A stretch of 53,967 nt of DNA from Candidatus Peregrinibacteria bacterium (GTDB lineage: Bacteria > Patescibacteriota > Gracilibacteria > CAIRYL01). This document shows, in pieces, positions 5,676 through 35,436 of this stretch. The notes under the pieces are model-generated. The model saw only the letters and a program-made list of their open reading frames with translations, did no database searches and was not told the origin of the DNA. A program made the translations under genes and the position numbers. The DNA lies in assembly GCA_037138215.1 (NCBI GenBank), contig JBAXIU010000003.1, forward strand, positions 1 through 53,967. The letters are read 5' to 3'. Every line of letters starts with the position of its first letter. The stretch's first letter is position 1.

Positions 5676-5703
5676 GTAGAGCCGTTGCATGCAACGGCTC
5701 TAC
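5676..5703. repeat. GTAG-type REP palindrome (family A)
   Basis: Perfect 28-bp palindrome GTAGAGCCGTTGCATGCAACGGCTCTAC; supplies the trpD TAG stop. Confidence 0.93.
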
Positions 5704-6719
5704 ACCTTTATATTTCTCAATTCTTCGACTTTTCCCCACACTTTTCCGGTATCTATCACTTTTTTCGCCAGTGCCATTCCTTCTAAAAAAGACTCTGCTT
5801 TTCCGGAAATCCAAAACCCAGCACCAGCATTTAAGAGTACAATATCTCGTTTCGCACCGCGAATTTCTCCTCTTAAAATTCCCTCTAAAATTTGGGCGTT
5901 TTCTGGGGGCGTTCCACCTTGTACCTCCTCATGTTTTACACGAGAAATTCCAAAATCCTCAGGAGTGAAAATTCCGGTTTGTATTTCTCCTCCGTTTTGA
6001 AACAGGGCAAATGTGGTGGAATCACAGACGGTTATTTCATCTAATCCATCGTTTCCGTGTACTACCAGGGCAGAAACGCGCCCCAGAGATTGAAGAGCTT
6101 TGGCAATGGGCAATACGAGATCTTGAGAAAAAACGCCGACCACCTGGTGGGTGGGATGCGCGGGATTTACCAATGGTCCCAGAATATTAAAAATGGTTCG
6201 GTGTTCAATTTTTTTGCGAACCGGCATAATAAACCGCATAGCAGGATGGATTTTTTGGGCAAAAAGGAAGGCAATGCCAACGCTCTCTAAAATTTTCCCC
6301 GTTTCTTCGGGCGTGTTTTCCAAAGAAATCCCCAAACACTCCAAAACATCTGCCGACCCACTTTTTGAACTTGCAGCACGGTTTCCGTGTTTTGCAACGG
6401 TTACCCCTCCTCCTGCCAGCACAAATGCAGCGGTAGTAGAAACATTAAAAGTTTTCGCACTCCCACTTCCTCCGGTCCCGCACGAATCAAAAATTTTTGT
6501 CTGGTGCGTGGAGATTTTTGTAGCAACCTTTTCCATTTCTTTTGCAGCACCCGCAATTTCTTCGTCTGTTTCTCCTTTTTGGGAAAGACCCCGCAAAAAA
6601 ATCTCTAAATCTTCTGACGAAACCTGTTCGGCAAAAATATCCCGAAACGCCTCTGCAGATTGGGTTTCAGGAAGATTTCTTCCTGCGGTAATTGCCGTAA
6701 GTGCAGAAAGAAAAGACAA
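5700..6719 (-). CDS. trpD: Anthranilate phosphoribosyltransferase
   Basis: DSCGTGG, FNVSTT, KHGNRAASSKSGSAD, RTIFNILGPL, DGLDE; TTG start. Confidence 0.96.
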   Translation of the reverse strand: MSFLSALTAITAGRNLPETQSAEAFRDIFAEQVSSEDLEIFLRGLSQKGETDEEIAGAAKEMEKVATKISTHQTKIFDSCGTGGSGSAKTFNVSTTAAFVLAGGGVTVAKHGNRAASSKSGSADVLECLGISLENTPEETGKILESVGIAFLFAQKIHPAMRFIMPVRKKIEHRTIFNILGPLVNPAHPTHQVVGVFSQDLVLPIAKALQSLGRVSALVVHGNDGLDEITVCDSTTFALFQNGGEIQTGIFTPEDFGISRVKHEEVQGGTPPENAQILEGILRGEIRGAKRDIVLLNAGAGFWISGKAESFLEGMALAKKVIDTGKVWGKVEELRNIKV

Positions 6720-6740
6720 GACGGAATGACAAAAAGAAAA

Positions 6741-7109
6741 CTAAAGATCGGTAGAGGCAATAGCGTCTCGAAGAGAACCGTAGTGCTCTACAAGGCTCAA
6801 AAAGCCTACCAAATCTAAAATATCCAAAATATGCTGATTCCCTTCAGAGAAAATTATTTTTTTATCTTCCTGGGAAAGTCGGGTGTACATATCGGCAAAA
6901 TATCCGATAACCGTAGAGTTAATAAATTCCAAATCGCGGAGATGAAAAATAAAACATTTCGTTCCCTGTGTTCGCTCTTCATGAAGAGCATTATTAAGAC
7001 TCTCTCGGAATGCGTCTACTGTCTCGCCATCTATTTCGCCCGATAAATAGATGACCTTGAGATGGTCTTTGTTCGGAACATCAATGAGCGATACCTGGTA
7101 GGCTGCCAT
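6741..7109 (-). CDS. STAS-domain anti-sigma-factor antagonist
   Basis: LSGEID...LRDLEFINSTVIG...ILDLVG pattern. Start ATG 7109. Confidence 0.85.
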   Translation of the reverse strand: MAAYQVSLIDVPNKDHLKVIYLSGEIDGETVDAFRESLNNALHEERTQGTKCFIFHLRDLEFINSTVIGYFADMYTRLSQEDKKIIFSEGNQHILDILDLVGFLSLVEHYGSLRDAIASTDL

Positions 7110-7246
7110 AAATTTCAAGAGAAAGATGAGAAAATTCCCATTACTGTACTCTATTTTGAGCAAAAAATCAAGGTTTCGTCAATCTTCTTTTTTATTTTTC
7201 AAAAATTTGGCATGATAAAAGGGATAAATTCTTCATTTCCCCCACT

Positions 7247-8749
7247 ATGTCTCCATTAAAACCTTTTTATATTACGACTTCCATTGCCTATGTAAATGGC
7301 GTTCCCCATGTGGGATTTGCCATGGAAAGTATTGAAGCCGATGTTTTAGCACGATGGGCACGCAAACAAGGACGAGAAACATTTTTTCTCACCGGAACTG
7401 ACGAGCACGGAAGCAAAGTGGCCAAAACCGCAAAAGAACGAGGAATTTTGCCGCAAGAACTCTGTGACGAAAACAGTGCGGAATTCCAAAAATTGGGAAA
7501 CGCACTTACGCTCTCAAACGACGATTTTATTCGCACGACAGATAAAGAAAGACATTGGACATCTGCTCAAAAAATTTGGGAAAAGCTGGCAGAAAATGGG
7601 GACTTAGAAAAACGGGCATATACCGCTCAGTATTGCAGTGGATGCGAAACATTTCTTACGGAAAAAGATTTAGTGGATGGACTTTGCCCTTTTCATAAAG
7701 TGGCGCCCGAAACCGTTTCAGAAGAAAATTATTTTTTTAAGCTTTCCAAATATTCCCAAGAAATTGCAGAACTGCTCCGCACGGACGCATTAAAAATTGT
7801 GCCCGATTTTAGAAAAAATGAGATTTTAAAAATGGCAGAGGAAGGATTTACTGATGTTTCTTTTTCTCGCCCGACCGAAAAAGTGAGTTGGGGAATTCCC
7901 GTTCCCGGAGACTTGTCTCAAACCATGTATGTGTGGTGTGATGCCCTCACAAATTATATTTCGGCATTGGGATATGGCAAAGAGGTAGAGCCGTTGCATG
8001 CAACGGCTCTACCGTTCCAAAAATTCTGGAATTCTGGCGAAGTGGTCCATGTCATTGGAAAAGATATTTTACGATTCCACGCGGGGATTTGGATTGGAAT
8101 GCTTCTTTCTGCCGGTATAAAAACGCCCGACAAAATTTTTGTGCACGGATTTCTTACCAGCGAAGGAGAAAAAATGAGTAAATCGCTCGGGAATGTGGTA
8201 GACCCGTTTTTGGAAGTAGAAAAATATGGAACAGATGCGCTGCGGTATTTTTTACTCCGAGAGGTTCCCGTAGGAAGAGATGCCGATTTTAGTCGCCAGA
8301 GATTTGAGGAAATTTACCAAGCGCATTTGGCAAACGGAATTGGAAATTTGTCATCTCGAGTTCATAAATTGTGCGAACGAAATTCGGTAGAGCCGTTGCA
8401 TGCAACGGCTCTACGCGACGATTTCACCCAAATAATCGCTAAAACCGAAAAAACCGTAACAGAAAAAATGGACGCATTTCTCATTCACGAAGCCATTCAA
8501 GAACTCTTTTTAGTGGTAGATTTTTGTGATAAACGCATGGACGAAGAAAAACCATGGCTTGCCAATGAAGATGGAACCGTAAAAATGGAACTTATGAAGT
8601 CTCTCCTTATTACCCTCCGATGGTTTGCAATGGAATTGGAACCCTTTTTGACCAATACGGCACAAAAAATGAAAAATATGTTTGGGGATAACGGGGAACC
8701 GTTGGGTGAAGGGCAAATGCTGTTTCCGAGGTTAGAGAAACTGGCGTAA
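7247..8749 (+). CDS. metG: Methionine--tRNA ligase (short form) carrying two in-frame REP insertions
   Basis: YVNGVPHVG, TGTDEHG, CSGC..CPFH knuckle, YVWCDAL, GKDILRFH, KMSKS. Confidence 0.97.
   Translation: MSPLKPFYITTSIAYVNGVPHVGFAMESIEADVLARWARKQGRETFFLTGTDEHGSKVAKTAKERGILPQELCDENSAEFQKLGNALTLSNDDFIRTTDKERHWTSAQKIWEKLAENGDLEKRAYTAQYCSGCETFLTEKDLVDGLCPFHKVAPETVSEENYFFKLSKYSQEIAELLRTDALKIVPDFRKNEILKMAEEGFTDVSFSRPTEKVSWGIPVPGDLSQTMYVWCDALTNYISALGYGKEVEPLHATALPFQKFWNSGEVVHVIGKDILRFHAGIWIGMLLSAGIKTPDKIFVHGFLTSEGEKMSKSLGNVVDPFLEVEKYGTDALRYFLLREVPVGRDADFSRQRFEEIYQAHLANGIGNLSSRVHKLCERNSVEPLHATALRDDFTQIIAKTEKTVTEKMDAFLIHEAIQELFLVVDFCDKRMDEEKPWLANEDGTVKMELMKSLLITLRWFAMELEPFLTNTAQKMKNMFGDNGEPLGEGQMLFPRLEKLA
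7985..8012. repeat. REP family A copy inside metG (encodes VEPLHATAL)
   Basis: Identical to 5676-5703; in frame at codon 247. Confidence 0.95.
8387..8414. repeat. REP family A copy inside metG (encodes VEPLHATAL)
   Basis: Identical to 5676-5703; in frame at codon 381. Confidence 0.95.
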
Positions 8750-8752
8750 TGT

Positions 8753-9538
8753 ATGCCCCATATCACCTTTCCCGTTGGCATTTCAATTGGTGAAAACTTT
8801 CTTCCCATTCATTTTTTCTTTGAAGTGCTCGCGTTTTATTTGGGGATTTCGTATTATTATCATTTACGCGCATCTCAAAAAGATCATTTTTCTGAATCGC
8901 AAAGACTCACGCTCCTCGTTTCAGCGTGTATCGGAGCACTTTTGGGCTCTCGTCTTTTAGCGGCACTAGAACACTACCAGTTTTTAGTAGAGCATTTTTC
9001 GTGGTTTTCTCTCACCCAATCTAAAACCATTGTGGGCGGCATTATTGGCGGGTGGATTGGTATTGAAACGGCAAAAAAATTTATGAAGATTACCACCTCC
9101 AGCGGTGACCTTTTCACTTTTCCGCTTATTTTTGCTATTATAGTGGGAAGAATTGGCTGTGCACTTACCGGTGTGTCGGATGGAACCGCGGGAGATCCAT
9201 CCGATTTGCCCTGGGCGTTTGACCAAGGCGATGGAATTGCACGGCACCCAACCGCACTGTACGAAATTTTATTCCTCGGTATTTTTTGGGCTATTTTATT
9301 ACTTTTAAAACAAAAATTTTCGCTCCAAAATGGAGATCTTTTTAAATTTTTTATGGTGGGCTACTCCCTGTGGAGAGTTCTCGTAGAATTTATAAAACCT
9401 GTTGATAGTCTTATTTTTGGATTATCCGCCATCCAAATTGCCTGCGTTTTTGTTCTTCTATATTATGTATGGGTTTTCATAAAACGATTTTATCCCCCTT
9501 TATGCCCGCACAAAGACCATACACCTACTATGACCTAA
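8753..9538 (+). CDS. Prolipoprotein diacylglyceryl transferase (Lgt)-family protein, divergent
   Basis: About 7 TM helices; GRIGC, HPTALYE and RVLVEFIK correspond to Lgt GRxGN, HPSQLYE and RF..EF.R. The usual SFHGG is replaced by TIVGG. Confidence 0.85.
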   Translation: MPHITFPVGISIGENFLPIHFFFEVLAFYLGISYYYHLRASQKDHFSESQRLTLLVSACIGALLGSRLLAALEHYQFLVEHFSWFSLTQSKTIVGGIIGGWIGIETAKKFMKITTSSGDLFTFPLIFAIIVGRIGCALTGVSDGTAGDPSDLPWAFDQGDGIARHPTALYEILFLGIFWAILLLLKQKFSLQNGDLFKFFMVGYSLWRVLVEFIKPVDSLIFGLSAIQIACVFVLLYYVWVFIKRFYPPLCPHKDHTPTMT

Positions 9539-10908
9539 CCATTAGCCTTTGCCCTACTTGTTTAAAACGGGTATATGGGAAAATTGTTTTTGAGAATGAC
9601 AAAGTGTTTATGCTCAAACACTGCAAAGAGCATGGGAGTTTTAAAGTGCTGATAGCCACAGATATTGAGTACTACAAAAAATGCCGACAATACGCCAAAA
9701 AAAGCGAAATGCCCTGCAAATTTAAAACCAAAGTGAAATACGGATGCCCGTATGATTGTGGGCTTTGTGAAGACCACGAGCAGCATTCGTGCTCTTCGGT
9801 CATCGAAGTGACTGATCGGTGTAATTTGAAATGTCCCACTTGTTATGCGTCTTCTTCTCCTACTTGTGGCGAACACCGCACGCTAGAAGAAATTGAGAAA
9901 ATGTTTGATATTATGGTAGAAAGCGAAGGCGAACCGGATGTCGTGCAGATCAGCGGAGGAGAGCCCACTATTCATCCTGATTTTTTTGCCATTTTAGATA
10001 TGGCGAAAACCAAACCTATTAAACACCTCCTGTTAAACACCAATGGCGTGCGCATTGCCACCGAAGAAGGTTTTGCAGAACGCCTTGCAACCTATATGCC
10101 CCAATTTGAGATTTATCTTCAGTGGGATAGCTTACGACCCGAAGTGCTGAAAAAATTTCGGGGAGCGGATCTTTCCGAAATCCGCAAAAAAGCGTTGGAA
10201 AAACTCAATGCCCTCAATCTCTCAACCACTCTGGTGGTGGTGGTACAAAAAGGCGCAAATGACGATGAGCTAGGGGAAATTGTTGAATTTGCAATGCAGC
10301 AGCCCTGCGTTCGAGGGATTACTTTTCAACCGGTACAATTTGCCGGAAGAAATGAAGACAGTACACCAGAAGACCGCATTACACCCACAGAAGTACGCCA
10401 GAAAATTATTGCGCAACAGAGCGTTTTTACTGCAAATGACCTTATTCCTGTTCCGTGCAACCCCGACACCCTCACAATGGCGTACGGGCTAAAAATCGGA
10501 GGATCTGTTCATGCACTTACAAGGTATATTGATCCGACCAAACTTTTGGAGGCATCCAAAAATACCATTGTGTTTGAGAGGGATGAACAGCTGAAAAAAA
10601 AGCTTATTGAACTGTTTTCTACGGGAAACTCTCCCGAAAGCTCATCCAAGATTTTTGGCAGTATGCTGTGCTGTTTGCCCAAAATAGTGGCACCAAAAAA
10701 CCTCAAATACGACAATATTTTCCGCATTCTTATTATGCACTTTCAAGACGCATACGATTTTGATGTGCGGGCGATTAAAAAGTCCTGCGTGCATATTGTG
10801 CATAAAGACGGGCGCATTATTCCTTTTGAAACCATGAACCTCTTCTACCGCAACAACGAAGATCTCCTCAAAACGCTCCAAAGAGAAGATGAGTCTTTTA
10901 CTTTTTAA
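9502..10908 (+). CDS. Radical SAM enzyme, Tes/GDGT-MAS (MJ0619)-like family
   Basis: N-terminal CPTC...CKEHG, GCPYDCGLCEDH...C, core CNLKCPTC, SGGEPT, C-terminal SCVH..DGRIIPF. Likely start ATG 9502. Confidence 0.85.
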   Translation: MPAQRPYTYYDLTISLCPTCLKRVYGKIVFENDKVFMLKHCKEHGSFKVLIATDIEYYKKCRQYAKKSEMPCKFKTKVKYGCPYDCGLCEDHEQHSCSSVIEVTDRCNLKCPTCYASSSPTCGEHRTLEEIEKMFDIMVESEGEPDVVQISGGEPTIHPDFFAILDMAKTKPIKHLLLNTNGVRIATEEGFAERLATYMPQFEIYLQWDSLRPEVLKKFRGADLSEIRKKALEKLNALNLSTTLVVVVQKGANDDELGEIVEFAMQQPCVRGITFQPVQFAGRNEDSTPEDRITPTEVRQKIIAQQSVFTANDLIPVPCNPDTLTMAYGLKIGGSVHALTRYIDPTKLLEASKNTIVFERDEQLKKKLIELFSTGNSPESSSKIFGSMLCCLPKIVAPKNLKYDNIFRILIMHFQDAYDFDVRAIKKSCVHIVHKDGRIIPFETMNLFYRNNEDLLKTLQREDESFTF

Positions 10909-10917
10909 CACTTTTTT

Positions 10918-11280
10918 ATGACAGATTTTGCAGAAGCAATGCAAGACATTCCACATACCCCAGAGATATCCGAAGAATCTTCTCCCCTAAAAAAAGAGAA
11001 AAAATTTCTTTGGAGGTTTTTTCAGTACTATTTTTTCGGCAGTATTGCCATGTATTTCTGTTTATATGCGAGGGTCTTCTCCGGTGATTTCGAAATTATT
11101 CTCATTTTTGCTCCCTTTGTAATCCCAACACTCGTTTCCATTTTTTACTTTTTTCGCGCCATTTACCTCTTGCTGGATCAGAATTTAGAAGCGTTTAAAT
11201 TTGCGCTACTGGTTATGATTATAAGCGCACTTATTGGGGCGGGCGTATGTGCTGGGAATATACAATTTTTGAGCTTTTAA
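10918..11280 (+). CDS. Small membrane protein with C-terminal IGAGVCxGN motif (paralog 1)
   Basis: Acidic N-terminus MTDFAEAMQDI, 3 hydrophobic segments, LIGAGVCAGNIQFL. Confidence 0.8.
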   Translation: MTDFAEAMQDIPHTPEISEESSPLKKEKKFLWRFFQYYFFGSIAMYFCLYARVFSGDFEIILIFAPFVIPTLVSIFYFFRAIYLLLDQNLEAFKFALLVMIISALIGAGVCAGNIQFLSF

Positions 11281-11312
11281 GCCTCTCTTACATAACCTTT
11301 TGTGATGAATAT

Positions 11313-11666
11313 ATGAAAGACTTTGCAGAAGCAATGCAAGACATTGCCCAACAACCAGAGGTGAATGAAGAAAATGCATCACTCACAAAAGAGAAAAAAT
11401 TGATGGGAAATATTTTAAAGTGCTATGGCCTATTTGTTGTGCTTTTTTGGGTATTATCTCCTGAGATTAATACTACTTACTTTCCACCAGTCGGGATCGC
11501 TTCATTCAGCCTTCCTTGTTTAGTTTCTGTTATTTATTTTTTTCGTATTGTATACTGCTTATTTCAAAAAAACTGGGAATCTTTTAAATTTTCAATCCTT
11601 ATTTTTTTTATGGGACTTATTATTGGCGCGGGAGTATGTTACGGAAATTTAACTTTTTTGGGGTAG
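11313..11666 (+). CDS. Small membrane protein with C-terminal IGAGVCxGN motif (paralog 2)
   Basis: Start ATG 11313 MKDFAEAMQDI matches paralog 1; IIGAGVCYGNLTFL. Confidence 0.8.
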   Translation: MKDFAEAMQDIAQQPEVNEENASLTKEKKLMGNILKCYGLFVVLFWVLSPEINTTYFPPVGIASFSLPCLVSVIYFFRIVYCLFQKNWESFKFSILIFFMGLIIGAGVCYGNLTFLG

Positions 11667-11793
11667 GTGCTCCGCTAAAATGTACCATAAATTATTCTCA
11701 AAACCGCTGTCACTTAATCTCCATGAACTCCAAAAAAATTCCTTGACTCTCGCCCTATAAAAGGCGTAAAAATACCCCCTTTTTTTGAATTTT

Positions 11794-13752
11794 ATGACCA
11801 AAGAAAGCCGACTATTACACAGATTTGTAAATGTTCCTCAATCAACTGCTACAGGGCATTCTCATTTAAATAAGATTCAGAGTGGGACAGGGGATCTCAC
11901 TGATACTCGAAATAAAGAGACCAATGCAAATTGGGACAAAGGGCTTACTGAAGGACTCGCAACGAGTGGAGGACTGTATATGCCAGAAGAAATTCAAACT
12001 CTTCCAGATGGTTTTATTGCGGAAACCCTTCCAACCCTCAATACCGCACAAATTGCCGCGGCGCTTTTGCGTCAGTTTATCCCCCGAGAAGCAATTGATG
12101 ATGCCACTCTTTCTTCCTTTACCGAACAGGCACTAGGCTTTGGAATCCCTCTGGAAGATATTACCAAGATGTTTAGCGAAGGAGAAAGTCCAGACAAGGT
12201 TTTTGTGGCGTGGCTAGACAGAGGGAAAACGGCGAGTTTTAAAGATTTTGCGGCGCAAACCATTGGACAGCTTATGGAATGGTGGTGCGAAAAAAATCAA
12301 ACTCCAAAAAATATCGTCGTGGCCACTTCTGGAGATACTGGAGTAGCTATTGCTCGAGCATTTGCCGGATCAAAATGGGTTACGGTTACAGTACTATATC
12401 CAGCAGATGGAGTTGCCGCACCGCAAGAAGCACAAATGATTGAGGTGGCACAAAAATATAAAAATATTCAGTGCTTGCCCTGTGCGGGAACATTTGACGA
12501 TGCCCAAGCACGGGCAAAAATTTTGCAACAAGCCCGAGATAAAAAAATTACAAAAGAAGAGCAAGAAAATCCCGATGAGAAAACGATTGAAACAGTAGCA
12601 GGAGAGATTCAAAAAATGTTGAAAGACACAGTAGGAGAAGAAATTAAACTGAACGAAGCAAAACGACTGGTAACCGAAACAAAAGAACTCGACCTCTCCA
12701 GCGCTAATTCTATTAATATTTGGCGTCTCATCCCCCAGATGACGCAATATTTTACGACCTACGCCAATCTCGTCAGGTCAGGACAAATAACCAATGGGCA
12801 AAAAATAGTGTTCGTTATTCCTACGGGAAATGTAGGGCATATTACCGCTGGACTTTTTGCCAAAAAATTAGGACTGCCGGTAGAAAAATTCGTGATGGCG
12901 ACGAATGAAAATAATATGATGCACAACCTGTTAGAAAATGGTGTATTACAGCAGGATGGATTTCATGCGACGGATGCAAATTCAATGGATATTGAAAAGC
13001 CGAGTAATTTAGAGCGCATTTTATATTTGGCACAGCAAGAAGCCGATCCAGATGTAACGGTAGACTACGCAGGACTGGCAAAAAAAATGGCAGAACAAGG
13101 AGCAATTCAGAATGGAATTGAGGTAAAAGACTTTGGAGTAACCGATGCCATGATGGCGTGGTTACGAGAAAATATTGTTTCTGCGTCCAGTACTGTAGAA
13201 GAGAGAAAAACTATTATAAAAGAAACCCACGAAAAAACAGGGGCATTACTGGAATGGCATGGCGCGGCGGGAGCAGTGGCAATACAAAAAGTACAAGAAA
13301 ATATTAAAGGCTTTGTAACGGTGCTCTTTGAAACTGCCGGAGTAGAAAAAGCAAAACCATGTTCTCTTGAGGAAGCAACCGGTATTCTAGAAATTCCAGA
13401 GGAATATAAAAATCCTGCAATGCAAGACGCCATGAATTTTGTTTTGGAAGGATCTGAAAAAAATGACCTTGCAGAAGCAACAAATGCCATGAGAGAAACA
13501 GTAGTAAACAGCATTATGGGAATTTTTGACGCTCTTCAAAATATCGCGCAAGAATCAGCAGAGAGAAGGGAATCCCCTCTTTCTCTCTTAAACTCTCTAT
13601 CCGCCAGTGGATATGCAATAGTTGTGGAAGAACAAGAAAAGATTCCTCAGTTTTCCTTTGCATCCGAAAAGAATATGATGACCTTAAGAGAAAACCTTTT
13701 GAACAGGCTTTCTCATAGAGACTATTTGGCATTTATTGAGAGGACAGAGTAA
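11794..13752 (+). CDS. thrC: Threonine synthase-like PLP enzyme with extensions
   Basis: GLATSGGLYMP, TASFKD (PLP Lys), ATSGDTG, SANSINIWRL, PTGN, NSMDI.KPSN; about 650 aa. Confidence 0.8.
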   Translation: MTKESRLLHRFVNVPQSTATGHSHLNKIQSGTGDLTDTRNKETNANWDKGLTEGLATSGGLYMPEEIQTLPDGFIAETLPTLNTAQIAAALLRQFIPREAIDDATLSSFTEQALGFGIPLEDITKMFSEGESPDKVFVAWLDRGKTASFKDFAAQTIGQLMEWWCEKNQTPKNIVVATSGDTGVAIARAFAGSKWVTVTVLYPADGVAAPQEAQMIEVAQKYKNIQCLPCAGTFDDAQARAKILQQARDKKITKEEQENPDEKTIETVAGEIQKMLKDTVGEEIKLNEAKRLVTETKELDLSSANSINIWRLIPQMTQYFTTYANLVRSGQITNGQKIVFVIPTGNVGHITAGLFAKKLGLPVEKFVMATNENNMMHNLLENGVLQQDGFHATDANSMDIEKPSNLERILYLAQQEADPDVTVDYAGLAKKMAEQGAIQNGIEVKDFGVTDAMMAWLRENIVSASSTVEERKTIIKETHEKTGALLEWHGAAGAVAIQKVQENIKGFVTVLFETAGVEKAKPCSLEEATGILEIPEEYKNPAMQDAMNFVLEGSEKNDLAEATNAMRETVVNSIMGIFDALQNIAQESAERRESPLSLLNSLSASGYAIVVEEQEKIPQFSFASEKNMMTLRENLLNRLSHRDYLAFIERTE

Positions 13753-13769
13753 ACGCAAATAAGGGGGTT

Positions 13770-13799
13770 GGGCTGAAATTCTTCATTCAGCCCTTTTTT
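13770..13799 (+). terminator. Intrinsic terminator after thrC
   Basis: GGGCTGAA-loop-TTCAGCCC followed by T6. Confidence 0.7.
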
Positions 13800-13870
13800 G
13801 GAGTATAAACTCAACACCCAACAAAGATGTATGTACAAAAAAATATAATAAAGGAGATTTGTAAATCCTC

Positions 13871-14143
13871 ATGATTTTTGATTGGAACGAGGTAAAAAAT
13901 GAGCTTTTAAAGCAAGACCGAAATATTTCTTTTGAGGAGGTGGTTATTGCTCTTCAGGATGAAAAAAAATTCTCTATTGCGAAATACCCTAATCCTGAAA
14001 AATATCCGAATCAAAAAATGTACATTCTCTCTCTTCAAGGTTATACCTATATGGTCCCGTTCGTTGATACCGAAAATGTGAGATACATAACAGGCATAAT
14101 TTCTCCTTTTTCTTGCTCCCTATTTCCTTTTTTGCCACAATAG
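13871..14143 (+). pseudogene. BrnT-family toxin, apparently 3'-truncated or degenerate; no antitoxin seen
   Basis: FDWNEVKNELLK.DRNISFEEV...YPNQ...YMVPFV matches BrnT-like proteins, but the usual LKTI.PSRK C-terminus is missing. Confidence 0.6.
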
Positions 14144-14148
14144 TTTCC

Positions 14149-14724
14149 GTGATTCAAAAATTCCCCATTCTTTTTTCGGCGCTTTTTCTCTTACTTTTTG
14201 CAGGATGTGGCACTGGAAGTGCTACGCCTTCAGTAGATCCTTCTTTGGCATTTGAAGGAAAAGCGTTTACCATTGGAATTCCCACTAACTGGGAAGTGTT
14301 TCCAGATACCGTTTTAGCCGGAAAAGGCGTAGATTTTGGAGCAAGAGACGCCAATGGCTTTGGAAAAATTGAAACGGTTATTGCGGTTACTTCGGAAGAT
14401 ATTCCCAATGGAGCCCCATTAGACCGCTTTACAACTCAATCTCTTGAAAATATCCGAAGACGATCACAGAATTTCCAAAAACAGTCCGAAGAGCCATTGA
14501 ATTTAGACGGGGTGCCTGCTACGCTGGTCCGGTACACGGATAGAAATGTGGTTGATCTTTCACAACTCCAGTTTTCCAGCATTTTTGCGGTCCATAATGG
14601 AAAAGCCTTTGTGGCAGTATTATCTATGGATTACGCCAAAACAGAGAGTGAAAAAACAAAACTGGAAGAAATTCTCAAGTCATTCCGGATAAAGGGGACT
14701 AGCCCCTCTCCCTCGTCTTCATAA
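14149..14724 (+). CDS. PsbP/DcrB-like lipoprotein
   Basis: GTG start, lipobox LLFAGC, FTIGIPTNW, LDGVPA, ILKSFRI C-terminus. Confidence 0.7.
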   Translation: MIQKFPILFSALFLLLFAGCGTGSATPSVDPSLAFEGKAFTIGIPTNWEVFPDTVLAGKGVDFGARDANGFGKIETVIAVTSEDIPNGAPLDRFTTQSLENIRRRSQNFQKQSEEPLNLDGVPATLVRYTDRNVVDLSQLQFSSIFAVHNGKAFVAVLSMDYAKTESEKTKLEEILKSFRIKGTSPSPSSS

Positions 14725-14752
14725 GAAACACGATGATGAGAAACACTATTCC

Positions 14753-14778
14753 TGGATTCCCGCCTGCGCGGGAATGAC
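14753..14778 (-). repeat. GTCATTCCCGCG..GGGAATCCA palindrome (family C, dRS3-like)
   Basis: Contains ATTCCC-N8-GGGAAT; related copies at 33099, 36296 and 36337. Confidence 0.85.
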
Positions 14779-14786
14779 AAAAAAAT

Positions 14787-14861
14787 GGCGATGTGGCCAA
14801 GTGGTAAGGCAGGAGCCTGCAAAGCTCCCATTCGGCGGTTCGAATCCGCCCGTCGCCTCCA
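14787..14861 (+). tRNA. tRNA-Cys (GCA)
   Basis: Acceptor GGCGATG/CGTCGCC, anticodon arm GGAGC-CTGCAAA-GCTCC, T-arm GGTTCGAATCC, encoded CCA. Confidence 0.97.
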
Positions 14862-18474: not shown

Positions 18475-20133
18475 TCAAACTTTTCCCGCCAGTTCCTGCA
18501 CTTTTTTTACACGGTTTTCGGATTTAAGAATTTCTGTGCCAATCAGCACGGCATCAGCAGTGCACGCATATTGGTGAATATCTTCTGCCGTTTTAAGCCC
18601 ACTTTCTGCCACAAAAATATAGTTTTTACGAGTATCATCACTGCCCTTAAGAAGGTGGTGAGCCAGAACTTTTCCAAAATGTGTGGGATCGACCGATAAA
18701 TCTCGAAAATCCCGATTATTAATGCCAATAATTTTCGCCGTCGTTTTTTCCAATATTTCTTGCAACTCCTCTGTGGTATGCACTTCCACCAGGGCATCTA
18801 TTCCTAACTTCTCACAAAGCTCTAAAAATTCTTTAATTTTTGCCGTGGTCAAAATACTCTTCATAAGAAGCACGGCATTAGCACCCTCTTCCACTGCTTC
18901 GTAAATTTGGGAGTCGTGCACAATAAAATCTTTCCGAAGGAGCGGGAGATGCGTTGCACTTCTGGCTTTTTTAAGATTTTCCAGACTTGCTCCAAAAAAT
19001 GCCGAGTCGGTGAGCACGGAAATAGCAGAGGCGCCGTTTTCGGTATACAGCCTTGCGAGGTCTTCTACCGTATCTGTTTCCCGAAAAAGTTTCCCTTGAG
19101 AAGGAGATGCAGGTTTAATTTCGGCTATTAGATGGGGTGTTTGAGATAGACCCTTTTTTGGCTTTAAAAGAGCATTATAAAAGGCGCGGGGGGTTGTAGG
19201 GGCGCGAGTTGTCGCGTCCGTTTTTTTGTAATCCGAAATTGTTTTCCATTTTTCTTTCACAATGCGGTGCAATATTTTTTGTGTTTTTGTAGAGCCGTTG
19301 CATGCAACGGTTCTACAAAAACAATTCTCCATTTCTTCTTCTGGCGCATTTAACCCCGTAAAAATCTCAAATTGCGCCATGCCCTGGTACAAAAACATTT
19401 TTTCTCCGCTGATAATTTTTGCACCGGCCGATTCTGCTTCTCGTAAAAATCTTGTTTTTTGGGGCGTATATACAATATCAAGCGCCGTGTGGTGGTCATT
19501 CCAAAAGGTTTTTGGGATGGGACTTTCGTTTTCATATGCACCAGTCATTCCGAGAGAGGTGGTATTGATGACGAGGTCAATGGTTTTTGGGTTTTGTAGA
19601 GACGCATTGCAATGCGTCTCTACGGTTTTAAATTCTTCTGCTAATTTTTGCGCCTTTTCCACCGTTCTATTCCAGAGAAAAATTTGAGAAACCCCTGCAT
19701 TTTCCAACGCGTATAAAATGGCTCTCGTGGCTCCTCCAGCGCCTAAAACCAGAGCAGTTTTTCCACGGATTTCAAACTTTTCCGTCAGAGATTTTAAAAA
19801 CCCCGTTCCGTCGGTATTGTCCCCCACCAATTTTCCATTGCGCCAAAAAATGGTATTTACGGCACCTATTTTTTGGGCAGCCGGATTCAGTGTATCGAGA
19901 TATTTTATGACCACTTCTTTATGGGGAACGCTGACAGAAAGCCCAGAAATTTCTCCGGACATTACTCGTTTTGCAAAAAATTCGTCTAAATTTTCAGGAG
20001 CAATTTCAAACCGTTCGTATTTCCCCGGGAAACCCCACGCCAAAAACCCAGCCGTATGAAGCGCCGGGGAAAGGGAATGCGATGCCGGGTAGGCGAGAAT
20101 GCCGAAACGCTGAAAAGAGGAGGGGTGGGGCAT
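18475..20133 (-). CDS. Fusion of shikimate dehydrogenase (AroE) and indole-3-glycerol-phosphate synthase (TrpC)
   Basis: N-half HSLSP, VSVPHK, GAVNT, NTDG, GAGGA, NRT, DIVY; C-half IAEIKPASPSQG, SVLTD, LLRKDF, EVH, GINNR, AESG. Start ATG 20133. Confidence 0.9.
   Translation of the reverse strand: MPHPSSFQRFGILAYPASHSLSPALHTAGFLAWGFPGKYERFEIAPENLDEFFAKRVMSGEISGLSVSVPHKEVVIKYLDTLNPAAQKIGAVNTIFWRNGKLVGDNTDGTGFLKSLTEKFEIRGKTALVLGAGGATRAILYALENAGVSQIFLWNRTVEKAQKLAEEFKTVETHCNASLQNPKTIDLVINTTSLGMTGAYENESPIPKTFWNDHHTALDIVYTPQKTRFLREAESAGAKIISGEKMFLYQGMAQFEIFTGLNAPEEEMENCFCRTVACNGSTKTQKILHRIVKEKWKTISDYKKTDATTRAPTTPRAFYNALLKPKKGLSQTPHLIAEIKPASPSQGKLFRETDTVEDLARLYTENGASAISVLTDSAFFGASLENLKKARSATHLPLLRKDFIVHDSQIYEAVEEGANAVLLMKSILTTAKIKEFLELCEKLGIDALVEVHTTEELQEILEKTTAKIIGINNRDFRDLSVDPTHFGKVLAHHLLKGSDDTRKNYIFVAESGLKTAEDIHQYACTADAVLIGTEILKSENRVKKVQELAGKV
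19196..19220 (+). repeat. Degenerate GTAG REP inside the TrpC N-terminal region
   Basis: GTAGGGGCGCGA-gttg-TCGCGTCC; reads DATTRAPT in the protein. Confidence 0.65.
19289..19316. repeat. REP family A copy at the AroE/TrpC junction
   Basis: One mismatch to 5676-5703; reads CRTVACNGST. Confidence 0.92.
19596..19623. repeat. REP family A variant inside the AroE domain
   Basis: Perfect palindrome GTAGAGACGCATTGCAATGCGTCTCTAC; reads VETHCNASLQ. Confidence 0.92.
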
Positions 20134-20328
20134 AAAAAAAGAAATTTTTGAGGACGAAATTTGCCAGAATACAGAAAAATGACGGTGTAAAAAAGAAAAA
20201 CATCTCCCCCAGAATATGGAAAAAATCATTTTTTTACAATCTTCCATCTCACTTTCTTCCTTTTTCTTGTTTTCCGCATTTTCTTTCGGCACCATAAAAA
20301 AAGAACGGATACTTTTGCCCCTCTGTTT

Positions 20329-22743
20329 ATGTCCCAAAATCTCGTAATTGTGGAGTCTCCTGCGAAAGCCAAGACCATTGAAAAATTCTTGGGAAAAGAA
20401 TTTACGGTAAAATCGAGTTTTGGGCATATTCGAGATTTGCCAAAAAGTGGTATGGGAATTGACTTAGAGGGGGATTTTTCACCTACTTATGAAATTTCTG
20501 CTGGGAAAAATAAAGTAGTGGCAGAACTGAAAAAAGCGGCAAAAGAAGCCACCACTGTCTGGCTCGCCTCCGATGAGGACCGCGAAGGAGAAGCTATTTC
20601 ATGGCATTTGGCAGAAGTTTTAAAACTCAAACCCGAAAATACCAAACGCATTGTGTTCCATGAAATCACCAAAACCGCTATTGAAGCGGCGATTCAAAAT
20701 CCGCGGAGTGTGGACCAACACCTGGTGGACGCACAACAGGCCCGGCGCGTATTAGACCGATTAGTGGGGTACGAGCTTTCCCCTGTATTGTGGCGAAAAA
20801 TTCGGGCAGGGCTTTCTGCTGGACGCGTACAAAGCGTGGCAGTAAGACTTATTGTCGAGAGAGAAAAAGAAATTGAGGCGTTTAATTCCTCCTCTCTTTT
20901 TGCCGTAAAAGCAGAATTTATAACCCCAGAAGGGAAGAGTTTTTTTGCGGAATGCAGTGAGAAATTTCAAAACGAAGCCAGCGCAAAAGCCTTTTTAGAA
21001 ACCGCATTAACGGGCGAATACACCATAAAGAGTGTGGAGAAAAAACCAGCAAAACGGTCTCCCGCGCCTCCATTTACCACTTCTACCCTCCAGCAAGAAG
21101 CCGCACGAAAACTGGGATTTTCCGTAAAAAAAACCATGATGGTGGCGCAAAAATTATACGAATCGGGAAAAATTACCTATATGCGAACCGACTCGTTTAA
21201 TCTCTCTAGCATGGCTTTGGGGGCGGCAAAAGAATACATTATCAAAAAATACGGAGAAAATTTTTCGCATTTCAGAACCTACACCACCAAAACCAAAGGC
21301 GCGCAAGAAGCGCATGAAGCCATTCGTCCTACCAATCTTTCCCAAGAAATGGCGGGGAATGAAAAAGACGAAGAACGGCTATACTCCCTGATATGGAAAC
21401 GAACCATTGCTTCCCAAATGAGCGATGCGCAATTTGAGCGCACCACAGCAGTTATTTCTGCCAAAAGTGTTCCGCATGAATTTTTGGCAAAGGGCGAAGT
21501 GATCACCTTTAGTGGATTTTTGGAGGTGTATCTCGAAGGAAAAGATGATGAAGAAGAGGGAGAGGAAGGAATGCTTCCCGCACTTAAAAATGGAGATAAG
21601 GCAGATCTTGGGAATCTCCAGGCAAAACAATCGTTTGCCCGTCCACCAGCGCGGTACAGTGAAGCAGCATTGGTAAAAAAACTAGAAGAAATGGGAATTG
21701 GACGACCTTCTACTTATGCGCCCACTATTTCCACCGTACAAGACCGCGGATATATTGAAAAAGGCGTTTCGGAAGGGGAAGAACGAAAAATCATCATTCT
21801 CTCCGCAAAACCCCTTTCTCCGGTGGTGAAGAGAGAAGAAAAAACAGAAAAAACAGGATCAGAAAAAGGAAAGTTAGTGCCCACTCCCATTGGGCGCGTG
21901 GTAACCGATTTTTTGGTAGAGCATTTTGCGGATATTGTGGATTACGGATTTACGGCAAAAGTAGAGGAAGAATTTGACACGATTGCGGAAGGAAAAACGA
22001 AATGGAATGCGATGATTAAATCTTTTTACGGCGATTTTCGGAAAAATATCGAAGAAAAGATGGGAAGTGTTTCTCGTGCAGATGCCATTCAGGAGCGCGT
22101 TTTAGGAACAGATCCCAAGAGTGGAAAACCCGTTTCTGCGCGGATGGGGCGATTTGGTCCGTATATTCAAATTGGAACCAAAGATGATGAAGAAAAGCCA
22201 TTATTTGCGTCTCTTCGCCCGGGACAAAATGGAGATAAAATTACTCTGGAAGACGCTTTGGAGCTCTTTAAACTCCCAAGAAATTTGGGAAAAACCGCGG
22301 AAGGAGAAGAGATTCTCACCAATTTTGGGCGATTTGGTCCGTATATAAAAATTGGATCTCTGTTTGTGTCTATCAAAAAAGATCCCATGGAAATTACGCT
22401 AGAAGAGGCTTTGGAAGCGATTGTTGCCAAAAAACAGGCGGAAATTGAAAAGCACATTAAAACATTTGCCGGAACGGATATTCAAATTTTAAAAGGTCGG
22501 TGGGGACCATATATTTCAGACGGAAACAAGAACGCCAAAATTCCAAAAGAACGGCAAGAACATCCAGAAACCCTCACCCAAGAAGAGTGTGAAGCGCTGC
22601 TTAAAACTGCACCGGTGAAAAAGGGTGGTTGGGGAAAAAAGAAAGCCGTTCCCGCAAAAATAACGGCAACAAAAACCAGCGTAAAAAAGCCAGCAGCCAA
22701 GAAAACGGCGGTAAAAAAGGCACCGGTGAAAAAGAAAGCATAA
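20329..22743 (+). CDS. topA: DNA topoisomerase I (type IA) with C-terminal repeats and a basic tail
   Basis: IVESPAKAKTI, DEDREGE, SAGRVQS, ITYMRTDS, AQEAHEAIRPT, GIGRPSTY; G.FGPY repeats; K/A/P-rich tail. Confidence 0.97.
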   Translation: MSQNLVIVESPAKAKTIEKFLGKEFTVKSSFGHIRDLPKSGMGIDLEGDFSPTYEISAGKNKVVAELKKAAKEATTVWLASDEDREGEAISWHLAEVLKLKPENTKRIVFHEITKTAIEAAIQNPRSVDQHLVDAQQARRVLDRLVGYELSPVLWRKIRAGLSAGRVQSVAVRLIVEREKEIEAFNSSSLFAVKAEFITPEGKSFFAECSEKFQNEASAKAFLETALTGEYTIKSVEKKPAKRSPAPPFTTSTLQQEAARKLGFSVKKTMMVAQKLYESGKITYMRTDSFNLSSMALGAAKEYIIKKYGENFSHFRTYTTKTKGAQEAHEAIRPTNLSQEMAGNEKDEERLYSLIWKRTIASQMSDAQFERTTAVISAKSVPHEFLAKGEVITFSGFLEVYLEGKDDEEEGEEGMLPALKNGDKADLGNLQAKQSFARPPARYSEAALVKKLEEMGIGRPSTYAPTISTVQDRGYIEKGVSEGEERKIIILSAKPLSPVVKREEKTEKTGSEKGKLVPTPIGRVVTDFLVEHFADIVDYGFTAKVEEEFDTIAEGKTKWNAMIKSFYGDFRKNIEEKMGSVSRADAIQERVLGTDPKSGKPVSARMGRFGPYIQIGTKDDEEKPLFASLRPGQNGDKITLEDALELFKLPRNLGKTAEGEEILTNFGRFGPYIKIGSLFVSIKKDPMEITLEEALEAIVAKKQAEIEKHIKTFAGTDIQILKGRWGPYISDGNKNAKIPKERQEHPETLTQEECEALLKTAPVKKGGWGKKKAVPAKITATKTSVKKPAAKKTAVKKAPVKKKA

Positions 22744-32422: not shown

Positions 32423-33043
32423 ATGTATACCCCTTTAAATACCATTGGCAAACGGTCGTTACTGCCCAATATTCCCAACCAGTTTGAGGCGGGAGAAATA
32501 GAAGTGTTGGCAACCAGTATGGTGCCGTATCTTTCTCCTCAAGACGCCATGGGAATAGCGCAACTTTCGGAAAACTATTCGTCAGAAGAACGACAACGAA
32601 AAATAATTGCTGCGTTTTTATTGCTTTCATTGGGCGACCAAATAGCACTTTTAGGAAGTATGGGACAAAGCCATCCCCAAACAGCCCAAAAGTTAAAAAA
32701 GACCATTACCAAGCCACGCATTTCGGCACAGCAGTATGATGAGCAGGTTACTGCCCTGGCAGGTGCGGTTGCCAACGCACAAGCACAATCCCAGTCTCAG
32801 TCACAAAATTCATCGCAGCCATCTGCAAATCCTGGAAAAGGGACGGACGAAAGCATTAAACAGGGATTGCAAAAAAACGGATACGAGGAATTTATGGGGA
32901 AACAAAAGGCAAACCAAATCGCAAAACTCAAAAACTCACAAAAAACAAAAGTGTCGTGGTCATCCAAAGCCAGCAGCAGTATTGGCTGGTGGGTTGCCGG
33001 AGGCATTGGCGGGGTGTTTGGCGCTGGAGCCCTTTTATCATAA
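32423..33043 (+). CDS. Hypothetical protein with Q/S-rich linker and Gly-rich hydrophobic C-terminal tail
   Basis: Ends IGWWVAGGIGGVFGAGALLS; tightly packed in the operon. Confidence 0.75.
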   Translation: MYTPLNTIGKRSLLPNIPNQFEAGEIEVLATSMVPYLSPQDAMGIAQLSENYSSEERQRKIIAAFLLLSLGDQIALLGSMGQSHPQTAQKLKKTITKPRISAQQYDEQVTALAGAVANAQAQSQSQSQNSSQPSANPGKGTDESIKQGLQKNGYEEFMGKQKANQIAKLKNSQKTKVSWSSKASSSIGWWVAGGIGGVFGAGALLS

Positions 33044-33051
33044 TAGATTTT

Positions 33052-35436
33052 GTGAATATTTTTTCATTTTTGTATCGGCATTTTTTATTCCCTGCTCTGT
33101 CATTCCTGCGGAGGCAGGAATCCAGAGAAGACGCATTGCAATGCGTCTCTACAAAAAACATCGTGCGTCGCGTCTCTACCATTCTTTTGTTATTTTTTGT
33201 ACTGGGAGGAATGGTGTTGCCAGTTATGGCGGTTGATCCTAATGTAGCAATAGACCCAAATGCTCTTAACCCTAGTCTTACCAATACTCCAACAACCGGA
33301 ACACAAGGTCAAACTGCAAATACTATCGGTAATGCTATTACACCTACTCTTCAAAACACTAATACCAACAACACCGCAACTGGGAATCTTCCTCTCGGTT
33401 CTGCGGGCAGTAATGCCATTGATCCAAAATTGCAAAACGCCTCAGCCACTAACCCTACAGCCACCACTGGTTCAACAGCTGCAAATACCACGGCAACAAC
33501 TAATTCTCCTGGATGCAATGAATCAGATAGACCATCAGATACAACAAAAGTAAAAGCCTGGGAAGATGGCTGTAAAAATGCAGAAATCAACAATCTCAAA
33601 AAAATGATTGGACAACTTTCCTCCTTGCTGGTGAGTTTTTTTACGCCGATTATTGCCATTTTAGCCGCATGGATAGGCGATGTAATGGGGAATAGCTTTG
33701 TAATGGGCGATATGTACGCCACGGGTGCCGCCGGAAACGACCAAAAATCCGTGGGGGAACTGCTGCACGCCGTATGGATGATATTTCGAGATATTATGAA
33801 TTATATCTTCATCCTCATTCTCGTTTTTATTGCGTTTATGAATGTCATCCCCAAAGGAGGGGGGGGTAAATTTAAAATAGGGGATTTACTTCCCAAATTA
33901 GTAATGGCGATTGTGGTCATCAATTTTACCTGGTTTGGCGCACAAGTTATTTTGGATGCCTCTACCATTGCCACCCATGTGATATACGGTATTCCGGACG
34001 AAATTGCCAAATCGTACCCCGAAGCCAAAATAGATAAGTGTGAAATGATAGAAAAAAAGATCCAAAATGAAAACAAGAAAGATACAATCGTTAAAGTCCC
34101 TGGACAAGGATGTATGGTAGTAGCGGGGCAAATCTATTTTGACAAGGATCACGCTCCCAAATCTGGAACACAAGCGGATCCGAATAATCTGAATAAAGAC
34201 CCAACCACCCAAGCAAAATTTAAGGACATTGATCCTGGGAAAATTATTGACTATGGAACGGTAGTATTGGGATGGGGTGATTTTGACAAATCGAAATTTA
34301 AAGATGGGAGCATTGCGCAGTTTTTTGCATTTAATATTATGCAAATCCAAAACTTGCCCATGGTGGTTCCGGGCGAAAATGTGGGATGGAGCGCCCTGTT
34401 TATTAACTCCCTTGCGGCGCTTATCCTTATGATTCTTGTACTGGTTATCTTTTTTTCCTTGTTTGTAGCGTTGGTGGCACGAGTAGTTATTTTATGGGTC
34501 AATATTATCTTGTCGCCTTTTATGGGGCTTTTAATGTTTAAAGACGATTTTGGGATTAGTACCGGAGGGGCAGACGATTATATTGGGCTCAATGTTTTTG
34601 TAAAAAATGCCTTTTTACCGGCTATGATGGGAATACCGTTGGTGCTGGGATTTATTATTATTAACACCGGGCAAACCTACCATTTTTTAGGATACGATGC
34701 GTCTGGAGCGACTGACATTGCCAATAGCACTGCCACCGCCAGCAACAATACCGACTTTACCCACAGTATTATTGAGTTTGCCCCAGGGCAAAAATTTATT
34801 AACGGTATTGGGAATATTCACCAGCTGTTTTGGTATATTATGGCCATTATGATTATGTGGATGAGTATGGAAATTGGAAAGGGATCTAATGGTCTTGCTG
34901 GTCTCATGATTACCCCTGTGGCAGATGGTGTGAAGAATATCGGACAATGGATTGCCACTTCTCCGATGTATATTAACTTTATACCGGTAACCTCGGCAGA
35001 TGGGAAAAAGACAACGCTTGTAGATCTGCACTCTGCAGGAGTAGGAATACCAAATATATTACGACGGAACATTGATAATGAGCAAAATATGGAGGCAGAA
35101 AAGCTCTTCCCGGGAAGTAGTAGTAGCCATAATCCGGTAACCAGTAAAGCAGCCCTTGCTCCTGAGATACAGCGTAAACTAGAAGCATATAATAACGATG
35201 ATGCCAAATTAAATCAGATATGGAGTACATTAAATAATGGAACCATTCACAATTCCGCAGACAGAGAGATAGCCCTTAGAGCCAATTTTGGGCTTCCTAT
35301 AACGGTTCCTATATCAGTAGCCGACCAAAAGAATTTAGCAGTAGTAATAGGAAATAAACTGCACCCGAATGATTCTGCAAAAATCGAAACTGCATACACA
35401 ATAATTGATCCCTCTACGGATACCGCCGCACAGTAG
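33052..35436 (+). CDS. Polytopic membrane protein, VirB6/TrbL-like (CPR type); start uncertain
   Basis: W..FRDIMN..FILIL..IA, LPKL..AIV.INF, RVVILWV.IILSP pattern; T/N-rich N-terminal region. GTG 33052 chosen as start. Confidence 0.7.
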   Translation: MNIFSFLYRHFLFPALSFLRRQESREDALQCVSTKNIVRRVSTILLLFFVLGGMVLPVMAVDPNVAIDPNALNPSLTNTPTTGTQGQTANTIGNAITPTLQNTNTNNTATGNLPLGSAGSNAIDPKLQNASATNPTATTGSTAANTTATTNSPGCNESDRPSDTTKVKAWEDGCKNAEINNLKKMIGQLSSLLVSFFTPIIAILAAWIGDVMGNSFVMGDMYATGAAGNDQKSVGELLHAVWMIFRDIMNYIFILILVFIAFMNVIPKGGGGKFKIGDLLPKLVMAIVVINFTWFGAQVILDASTIATHVIYGIPDEIAKSYPEAKIDKCEMIEKKIQNENKKDTIVKVPGQGCMVVAGQIYFDKDHAPKSGTQADPNNLNKDPTTQAKFKDIDPGKIIDYGTVVLGWGDFDKSKFKDGSIAQFFAFNIMQIQNLPMVVPGENVGWSALFINSLAALILMILVLVIFFSLFVALVARVVILWVNIILSPFMGLLMFKDDFGISTGGADDYIGLNVFVKNAFLPAMMGIPLVLGFIIINTGQTYHFLGYDASGATDIANSTATASNNTDFTHSIIEFAPGQKFINGIGNIHQLFWYIMAIMIMWMSMEIGKGSNGLAGLMITPVADGVKNIGQWIATSPMYINFIPVTSADGKKTTLVDLHSAGVGIPNILRRNIDNEQNMEAEKLFPGSSSSHNPVTSKAALAPEIQRKLEAYNNDDAKLNQIWSTLNNGTIHNSADREIALRANFGLPITVPISVADQKNLAVVIGNKLHPNDSAKIETAYTIIDPSTDTAAQ
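33099..33179. repeat. Nested repeat cluster (family C plus family A variant plus half REP) in the 5' end of the VirB6-like gene
   Basis: GTCATTCCTGCGGAGGCAGGAATCCA (33099-33124), AGACGCATTGCAATGCGTCTCTAC (33129-33152), ..GCGTCTCTAC (to 33179). Confidence 0.88.

Follow-up and report, generated by a model that had tools for sequence, protein, structure and literature searches.

Repetitive extragenic palindromes (REPs) are defined as extragenic, and they are usually seen as regulatory hairpins or harmless intergenic passengers. Why, then, are those of a lake bacterium with a reduced genome found mainly inside essential genes? The question is raised by a stretch of 53,967 nt (contig JBAXIU010000003.1 of assembly GCA_037138215.1; hereafter the window), in which the original prediction described six copies of a GTAG-type REP, most of them inserted in frame into genes of a probable member of the Candidate Phyla Radiation (CPR). 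The host assignment is borne out, the nearest named MetG homologues being labelled Candidatus Peregrinibacteria or Gracilibacteria. From the genome of this bacterium (G000) and those of its relatives, we find it likely that the palindromes are a GTAG-type REP family with a clade of REP-associated tyrosine transposases (RAYTs, HUH/Y1 enzymes), and that they occupy inherited, in-frame genic sites at which one variant is exchanged for another in place.

Two sequences account for the window copies. Variant B, GTAGAGCCGTTGCATGCAACGGCTCTAC, is exact at 5676, 7985 and 8387 and has one mismatch at 19289 (0 matches in 100 shuffles); variant A, GTAGAGACGCATTGCAATGCGTCTCTAC, is exact at 19596 and has three mismatches at 33125-33152 (no shuffle matched). 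All six predicted copies are thereby confirmed, and they lie in the window as follows.

5676..5703: REP variant B, palindromic over all 28 bp; the stop codon of trpD, TAG on the minus strand, is the CTA of this copy at 5700-5702.
5700..6719, minus strand: trpD (anthranilate phosphoribosyltransferase; PF00591, 309.7 bits), with its stop codon from the REP.
7247..8749, plus strand: metG (Pfam), 500 aa, intact, with two in-frame REPs.
7985..8012: first REP (variant B) of MetG, encoding VEPLHATAL (residues 247-255) in a variable loop that is modelled with low confidence.
8387..8414: second REP (variant B) of MetG, again encoding VEPLHATAL (residues 381-389); modelled as coil.
18475..20427, minus strand: aroE-trpC fusion (shikimate dehydrogenase and indole-3-glycerol-phosphate synthase, IGPS; Pfam), 650 aa, intact, with two in-frame REPs.
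19289..19316: REP variant B with one mismatch, in the SDH_C-IGPS linker; minus-strand reading CRTVACNGST.
19596..19623: REP variant A, within the Shikimate_DH domain; minus-strand reading VETHCNASL.
33125..33152: REP variant A with a decayed 5' arm, probably in a 5' untranslated region (5'-UTR).
33170..33179: half REP (right arm, GCGTCTCTAC) in the first codons (RRVST) of the gene starting at 33163.

Four copies are in frame in intact genes, with all the predicted peptides present in the translations, and one overlaps the trpD stop codon, both as had been claimed. The copy at 19289 and its flanks together form a 42-bp palindrome (19282-19323). The copy at 33125, which had been taken as probably genic, is more likely part of a 5'-UTR because a GTG at 33163, 11 nt past its end, opens a signal-peptide-like MRRVSTILLLFF... 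(MRRVSTILLLFFVLGG...), and because homology to relatives in the long frame over the copy starts at residue 163 at the earliest; the translation of that frame, which begins at 32956, does contain EDALQCVST.

A relaxed scan of the genome (1.435 Mb, 93 contigs, 41% G+C), requiring at least 11 of 14 complementary pairs and ends resembling GTAGAG, returned 54 hits, one of which (C37:5794) is AT-rich, lacks the family core and was dropped. The 53 copies kept lie on 29 contigs and comprise 37 distinct sequences; 24 copies are perfect palindromes. The outer six bases are conserved (GTAGRG/CYCTAC), and the inner stem is variable yet complementary: pairs 1-4 are G-C, T-A, A-T and G-C in 25-34 of the 37 distinct sequences, pairs 5, 7 and 11 are complementary in all 37 and pairs 9, 10 and 12 in 35-36, and each of these last six pairs covaries through two to four pair types. 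Two to four Watson-Crick types are likewise found across pairs 13-14, so that pairs 5, 7 and 9-14 all vary in this way. The two innermost pairs cannot form in a 4-nt hairpin loop and are nevertheless complementary in 27/37 and 32/37 sequences; thus, the element is symmetric as duplex DNA, beyond the symmetry of a hairpin. A sub-family with an asymmetric centre, AAGATTTT, recurs, so the unit of copying is the whole 28-mer rather than a half-site.

A reversed control pattern gave one match against 29 for the true one. The RNA hairpin has a predicted folding energy of -18.3 to -19.9 kcal/mol and z-scores of -6.4 and -7.6 (none of 200 shuffles folded as well). In length, stem-loop, GTAG ends and dispersed sub-families with compensating changes, the palindromes are a GTAG-type REP family, as originally proposed. 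They depart from the type in their genic location, and from REPINs, which are inverted REP doublets round a spacer, in that most copies are single: only those at C69 1034/1061, C53 1924/2050 and C4 20682/20767 lie within 130 bp of one another.

Where do the copies lie? The genome-wide count suggested with the original prediction placed 39 of the 53 inside long open reading frames (ORFs) and five outside genes. Thirty-four are in open frames with a Pfam family (31 within or between matched stretches, 3 adjoining one) and five in ORFs of 590-598 aa that have no confident Pfam match. Three lie over a stop codon and supply its TAG (trpD, a metallo-beta-lactamase-fold gene on C22 and a cytidylyltransferase gene on C35), four fall near the beginning of a stop-to-stop frame, among its first 11-88 codons, and may belong to 5'-UTRs, and two are otherwise ambiguous. 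The genic share (74%) is to be set against a coding density of 88%, taken from a crude greedy ORF map that mis-called some loci (e.g. aroE-trpC) and was used for density only; it is therefore close to the share expected of unselective placement, which is unusual for a REP.

UvrC carries four copies. Two each are found in AlaRS, IleRS, MetG, AroE-TrpC, ClpB, UDP-GlcNAc 2-epimerase, an aldehyde dehydrogenase and a YfiH-like protein, and one each in PheT, NrdD, MurB, a Mur ligase, IspH/LytB, PanC, RecF, AroA, RlmN, a GATase, an N6 methylase, a metallo-beta-lactamase-fold protein, an RNase_T-domain protein and a RAYT. Three ORFs without a confident Pfam match (595-598 aa; C17:18168-19961, C21:18883-20673 and C26:9841-11625) are paralogues whose REPs share one position, 126 aa before the C-terminus. 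The flanks are identical in C17 and C21, so these copies spread by gene duplication.

One reading frame is avoided. For the 47 copies whose longest spanning frame has at least 150 aa, 26 are read as GTA-GAG, 21 as xGT-AGA and none as G-TAG. One of the two frames used gives peptides of the VETHCNASL type and the other peptides of the xRDALQCVST type; the third, TAG-bearing frame is used only where the REP supplies a gene's stop codon.

Were the copies inserted, as had been claimed, or did they replace what was there? The host proteins were compared by alignment with their orthologues in the congener G001 and in relatives of the same family, order and class. Thirteen sites occupied in G000 are REP-free in G001 (two each in MetG and AroE-TrpC, four in UvrC, and one each in AroA, LytB, PanC, NrdD and MurB), and the net changes in residues are +4, -1, 0, +3, +3, +9, +20, -5, +4, +7, -1, -1 and +14. 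MetG is four residues longer at site 1 (7985) and one shorter at site 2 (8387), UvrC sites are at +9 (site 2) and +20, LytB is at +7 and MurB at +14, and NrdD and PanC are each one residue shorter than in G001. Only one of the thirteen sites shows the +9 or +10 that plain insertion predicts. Outside this set, epimerase site 1 is exactly +10 aa relative to G012 and G014.

At three sites, AroE site 1 of the above set and two in ClpB, the element occupies codons that relatives also have. ClpB site 1 reads VRAYCDTPL in G000 and VETHCNASL in G001, and the same nine codons encode, for example, AIEKVAEAL in REP-free relatives; the net change is 0, gapless in every row, against 16 of them. ClpB site 2 is length-neutral against five relatives, and AroE site 1 (VETHCNASL) aligns without a gap to VQTISSDSF of G001 and is +1 relative to the VEW...-type segments of four other relatives. 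The net change at these three sites is 0, at most +1/+2 against some relatives.

Structure models, onto which the original prediction had proposed to map the inserts, agree with this split. In MetG (mean predicted local distance difference test score, pLDDT, 89.5), residues 247-255 and 381-389 fall in segments with pLDDT around 70, the latter in a coil between helices 350-378 and 391-409. In the N-domain of ClpB (mean pLDDT 91.3), REP residues 60-68 and 130-138 are part of helices 57-70 and 132-143. Thus, the word "inserted" holds for some loops and linkers, which gain length in frame, and fails for ClpB sites 1 and 2 and AroE site 1, where the element overwrote native codons of equal length.

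Could all copies have arrived as 30-bp (10-codon) in-frame insertions, with later, separate deletions producing the equal-length sites under selection to restore length? A 30-bp unit has some footing in the flanks: no direct target-site duplication was seen, and the sole signal is an excess of T at -1 (24/53 copies) and A at +1 (34/53) over a background of 29%, which fits a T + 28 + A unit, as do 30-bp palindromes of the form TGTAG...CTACA at several loci. The +10 of epimerase site 1 and the +9 of UvrC site 2 are also what such insertions predict. We nevertheless regard this explanation as unlikely, given the single fit among thirteen sites, the gapless ClpB site 1 inside a helix, and an AroE copy that is perfect, undecayed and of the commonest variant and yet has a net change of 0 or +1. 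Two further models were tried and set aside. A general rule of pre-existing GTAG-like targets fails at ClpB site 1, whose native sequences contain neither GTAG nor CTAC, and the entry of 24 nt behind a native GTAG (+8 aa) does not fit the observed net changes. The elements in AroE, epimerase site 2 and MetG site 2 do begin at a native Val codon.

The sites occupied in both G000 and G001, eight in number, reveal a second kind of change. At ClpB site 1, IleRS site A and epimerase sites 1 and 2, the two genomes carry different variants at identical codons: VEPLHATAL versus VETKNFESL at IleRS site A, VETQNFASL versus VGAYCNTPL at epimerase site 1 and VETRLIASL versus VGAYCNTSI at site 2. The same or a like variant is found at IleRS site B (CRDSLQCVST versus CRDALQCVST), at ClpB site 2 and at the 5' end of a RAYT gene, whose interior has REPs in both genomes at nearby, non-identical places. 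A further candidate, the REP of the cytidylyltransferase gene, was rejected as a shared site: in G001, the copies belong to a second RAYT, within the gene and next to it. Point mutation cannot interconvert the variants while keeping every pair, so one entire 28-mer must have taken the place of another without disturbing the frame. The thirteen sites that are REP-free in G001 were, in turn, gained or lost since the genomes split.

Which enzyme would move such an element? The original prediction suggested a RAYT. Such genes are present, and the one in the window is probably not the enzyme for the GTAG 28-mers. Three candidates can be listed for G000, the first two being the only matches in a PF01797 search.

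35733-36233 of the window, plus strand: RAYT gene (NF047646, 92.1 bits; cut-off 80).
C16:19043-19744: RAYT-like gene (NF047646, 66.7 bits, below the cut-off of 80).
C1 37784-38473: RAYT gene tied to the GTAG 28-mers (67.9 bits, in two stretches).

The window RAYT is probably to be discounted because it is flanked by a different type of hairpin, (G/A)GAGCAACTC-N4-GAGTTGCTC(C/T), at 35587-35610 and 36251-36274. It has the classical REP-flanked layout, and similar hairpins occur on C12 and C39; the C16 gene is preceded (C16:18800-19110) by an array of CCCCGCGGG-type hairpins. The C1 gene has variant A at its 5' end and, in frame inside it, a variant C-like copy and a decayed one, directly after the sequence MPNHVHGII, an HxH motif that we take to be the HUH motif. 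No REP was found within 300 bp of the 3' end of this gene.

Used as a query, the C1 RAYT matches 28 of 61 genomes of the class at E <= 1e-8. Of the 22 genomes that have two or more palindromes, 21 gave a C1-type RAYT, as against 7 of the 39 with fewer (Fisher p = 1.8e-9, the related genomes not being independent). Seven of the 10 orthologous loci examined have a REP in the frame of the RAYT itself, in one common position just after the HUH motif, and the other three have REP-like peptides there. Seven more RAYT paralogues, in G001, G002, G005 and G006, carry other variants inside or between their matching halves, which suggests that RAYT and REP form variant-specific pairs.

The system had been described as an independent one. 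This claim is not sustained, since the exact variant A 28-mer is present in at least 119 stretches of species-representative genomes from many phyla. Among the matches listed are Planctomycetota (Kuenenia, Brocadia), Bacteroidota, Gammaproteobacteria, Chloroflexia, Cyanobacteriota, Dadabacteria, Nitrospirae, Omnitrophota and many Patescibacteria. We located 83 copies in 80 of these at least 119 loci, scoring a copy as genic if its ORF had a minimum length of 150 aa and extended for 40 aa or more to either side of it: 21 were genic and 62 lay outside genes. The genic copies fall in 20 ORFs, namely eight with a Y1_Tnp domain, four of RAYT size without a Pfam match and eight other genes (UvrA, UvrC, TGT, a His_biosynth protein, a GT2 glycosyltransferase, malic enzyme, a formyltransferase and an ATP-grasp enzyme). 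Judged by these gene predictions, many lineages have a REP inside a RAYT, and outside G000 most copies of the element are extragenic. What sets G000 apart is the share of the family that lies in coding sequence.

Are the hairpins then functional, kept by selection as pause sites at domain borders, as RNase or stability signals or as sites for a domesticated RAYT, rather than tolerated as selfish DNA? G000 and G001 share sites despite flanks that have diverged by 20-30%, nearly half of the copies are perfect palindromes with a very stable fold, and several lie at domain linkers (AroE|TrpC, PheT tRNA_bind|B3_4, AlaRS, UvrC). Selection of this kind seems to us improbable all the same: G001 lacks 13 of the 19 non-RAYT sites that were compared, copies are also found inside domains and helices, the choice of host genes has no common logic, and the same 28-mer elsewhere is mostly outside genes. 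It is very hard to believe that the 28-mers are removed before or during translation, intron-like or bypassed, and add nothing to the proteins; the stable hairpin would make a plausible processing signal, which is no direct support, whereas removal would delete nine residues of a conserved helix or strand at ClpB and AroE, excision of 28 nt, not a multiple of three, would shift the frame, and avoidance of the TAG frame is expected only if the element is read.

The metG stretch was also found in four lake-water metagenome runs, whose contigs, aligned to positions 5400-20600, yielded no insertion or deletion alleles. An assembly or sequencing artefact can be practically dismissed: contig ends do coincide with the copies at 5676 and 19596, as repeats often cause breaks, but runs X1 and X2 have contigs (5677-13203 and 5677-14778) that cover both 7985 and 8387 with 0 differences, run X4, which belongs to a different sample and study, has one that spans 7985, and independent genomes have REPs at orthologous codons.

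What is the mechanism of this turnover? Copies probably persist at positions that the protein can spare, such as the variable loops and linkers of MetG and UvrC; in structured helices, as in ClpB and AroE, the REP takes the place of a native segment of equal length. First arrivals would be insertions of about 30 bp (T + 28 + A) with a variable loss of target DNA. An occupied site is then inherited, and its 28-mer can be exchanged for another variant of the family with length and frame kept. A C1-type RAYT may move the elements, cutting at their conserved ends and swapping the 28-nt cassette; such cassette exchange would explain why turnover is neutral in length and frame. If the exchange is enzymatic, it amounts to length-neutral rewriting of coding DNA and offers a simple, testable substrate for RAYT biochemistry.

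A broader and more tentative proposal, which we put forward as a possibility, is that a RAYT clade present in many phyla keeps its own hairpin within its own ORF. The recognition hairpin being inside the RAYT ORF, gene and site would travel together, and REPs would spread by insertion and by cassette replacement that overwrites codons or an older REP. In gene-dense CPR genomes, coding sequence would become the main habitat, with a steady supply of nine-residue substitutions in essential proteins.

Several observations weigh against a RAYT-linked family that turns over in place within genes. The gene calls are ORF-based, and translation of the intragenic REPs is inferred from intact frames and conserved flanks; no RNA run was listed among those that contain the metG stretch. 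The only G000 RAYT above the NF047646 cut-off is the one in the window, with its other hairpin type, and the C1 RAYT scores below it because the REP splits the protein. The association of RAYT and palindrome has exceptions in both directions, G050 having 10 palindromes and no RAYT match and G051 five RAYT matches and no palindrome. The alignment of MetG, AroE and TrpC with orthologues, proposed as a way to define empty sites, gave REP-free relatives but no filled and empty pair at strain level, so no single transposition event is visible; no empty-site allele was found, the nearest MetG among 5.8 billion proteins being 74% identical. Replacement in one step is indistinguishable from insertion followed by deletion, and the native sequences at ClpB site 1 offer no GTAG- or CTAC-like target.

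For annotation, the recurrent VETHCNASL, RDALQCVST and VGAYCNTPL of predicted proteins are explained as repeat-derived segments.

Other features of the window and of the host proteins were noted in passing. Small hairpins (TCCTGC-GGAG-GCAGGA / CCCTGC-GAAG-GCAGGG) and a direct repeat, GAGCGAAGCGCGGCAATCCAT, present in two copies, occupy intergenic positions near the REP and the RAYT (33099-33123, 36296-36320 and 35499-35562). A tRNA gene at 14787-14858 (RF00005, 66.1 bits) is the sole match above threshold in an Rfam scan of the window; summed contig depth rises several-fold in its bin in all four runs, presumably through the tRNAs of other organisms. A second palindrome family, AACAG(G/C)GGGTCATGACCC(C/G)CTGTT, has window copies at 45361-45386 and 47917-47940, both in frame within one ORF (44322-48176, 1284 aa). 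At up to three mismatches, it has 21 copies in the genome, nine of them in open frames of at least 400 aa, mostly read as xTGGHDPLL.

AlaRS (C9:25549-28797) and IleRS (C26:2507-6541) each contain a full histidine-phosphatase domain (PF00300) in mid-synthetase, and the IleRS of G001 has a different, longer insert at that place. MetG of several family relatives (G003-G005, G007-G010; frames of 727-767 aa) extends into a C-terminal B3_4 domain (PF03483), an extension that G000 and G001 lack. Matches from G040, G030, G038, G052, G059 and G060, of the same class, are rich in in-frame TGA codons (6-10 in each IS200 transposase of G040), which would be expected were TGA a sense codon there; the G000 genes examined have none.

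How does the family compare with known systems? The TnpA enzymes of IS200/IS605 are HUH/Y1 enzymes that recognise DNA hairpins and cut at adjoining short sequences, and the elements insert beside a target tetranucleotide and remove no target DNA. This scheme does not predict the equal-length overwriting seen in G000, nor length-neutral rewriting by exchange. Rickettsia palindromic elements (RPEs) are also palindromic repeats that lie in frame in genes still apparently functional. They measure about 100-150 bp and add tens of residues, and we know of no transposase for them; by this definition, the G000 element is not an RPE, being a unit of 28 bp (9-10 codons) that often replaces native codons and has a RAYT.

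REPIN-RAYT systems (Bertels and Rainey, PMC3116915, PMC3337134), as described in the excerpts available, consist of REP doublets round a spacer, outside genes and flanking a RAYT. They resemble our family as non-autonomous hairpin repeats that have a RAYT partner and persist vertically at fixed places for long periods; the G000 elements differ as single, symmetric 28-mers, mostly in genes, with one copy inside the RAYT ORF. In literature searches whose hits were available in part, there was no relevant publication joining RAYTs or REPINs with Patescibacteria or CPR, nothing on point for Peregrinibacteria and palindromic repeats, and no publication treating a REP inside a RAYT ORF.

The closest relatives are the GTAG REP families of Di Nocera, De Gregorio and Rocco (2013; PMC3733652), where RPEs are also cited. 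The original prediction had named RPEs as the known case of in-frame insertion; the available part of that paper already reports intragenic GTAG and CGTC REPs in several species, including copies in uvr and tRNA-synthetase genes, with most REPs intergenic and some units at the ends of ORFs. Those families share with ours a short palindrome with terminal GTAG, sub-families with compensating stem changes and an association with RAYTs. Features for which we met no description are a majority of copies in coding sequence, overwriting at equal length in helices, the exchange of variants at orthologous codons and a REP within the RAYT ORF across phyla; the last three are not encountered in the accessible text of PMC3733652. 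As described there, GTAG marks one end of the REP and the units often form dimers or clusters, whereas in G000 the whole 28-mer is symmetric, including GTAG/CTAC, and copies are mostly single. Intragenic GTAG REPs are thus already known, and it is the extent and manner of their presence in G000 that are unusual.

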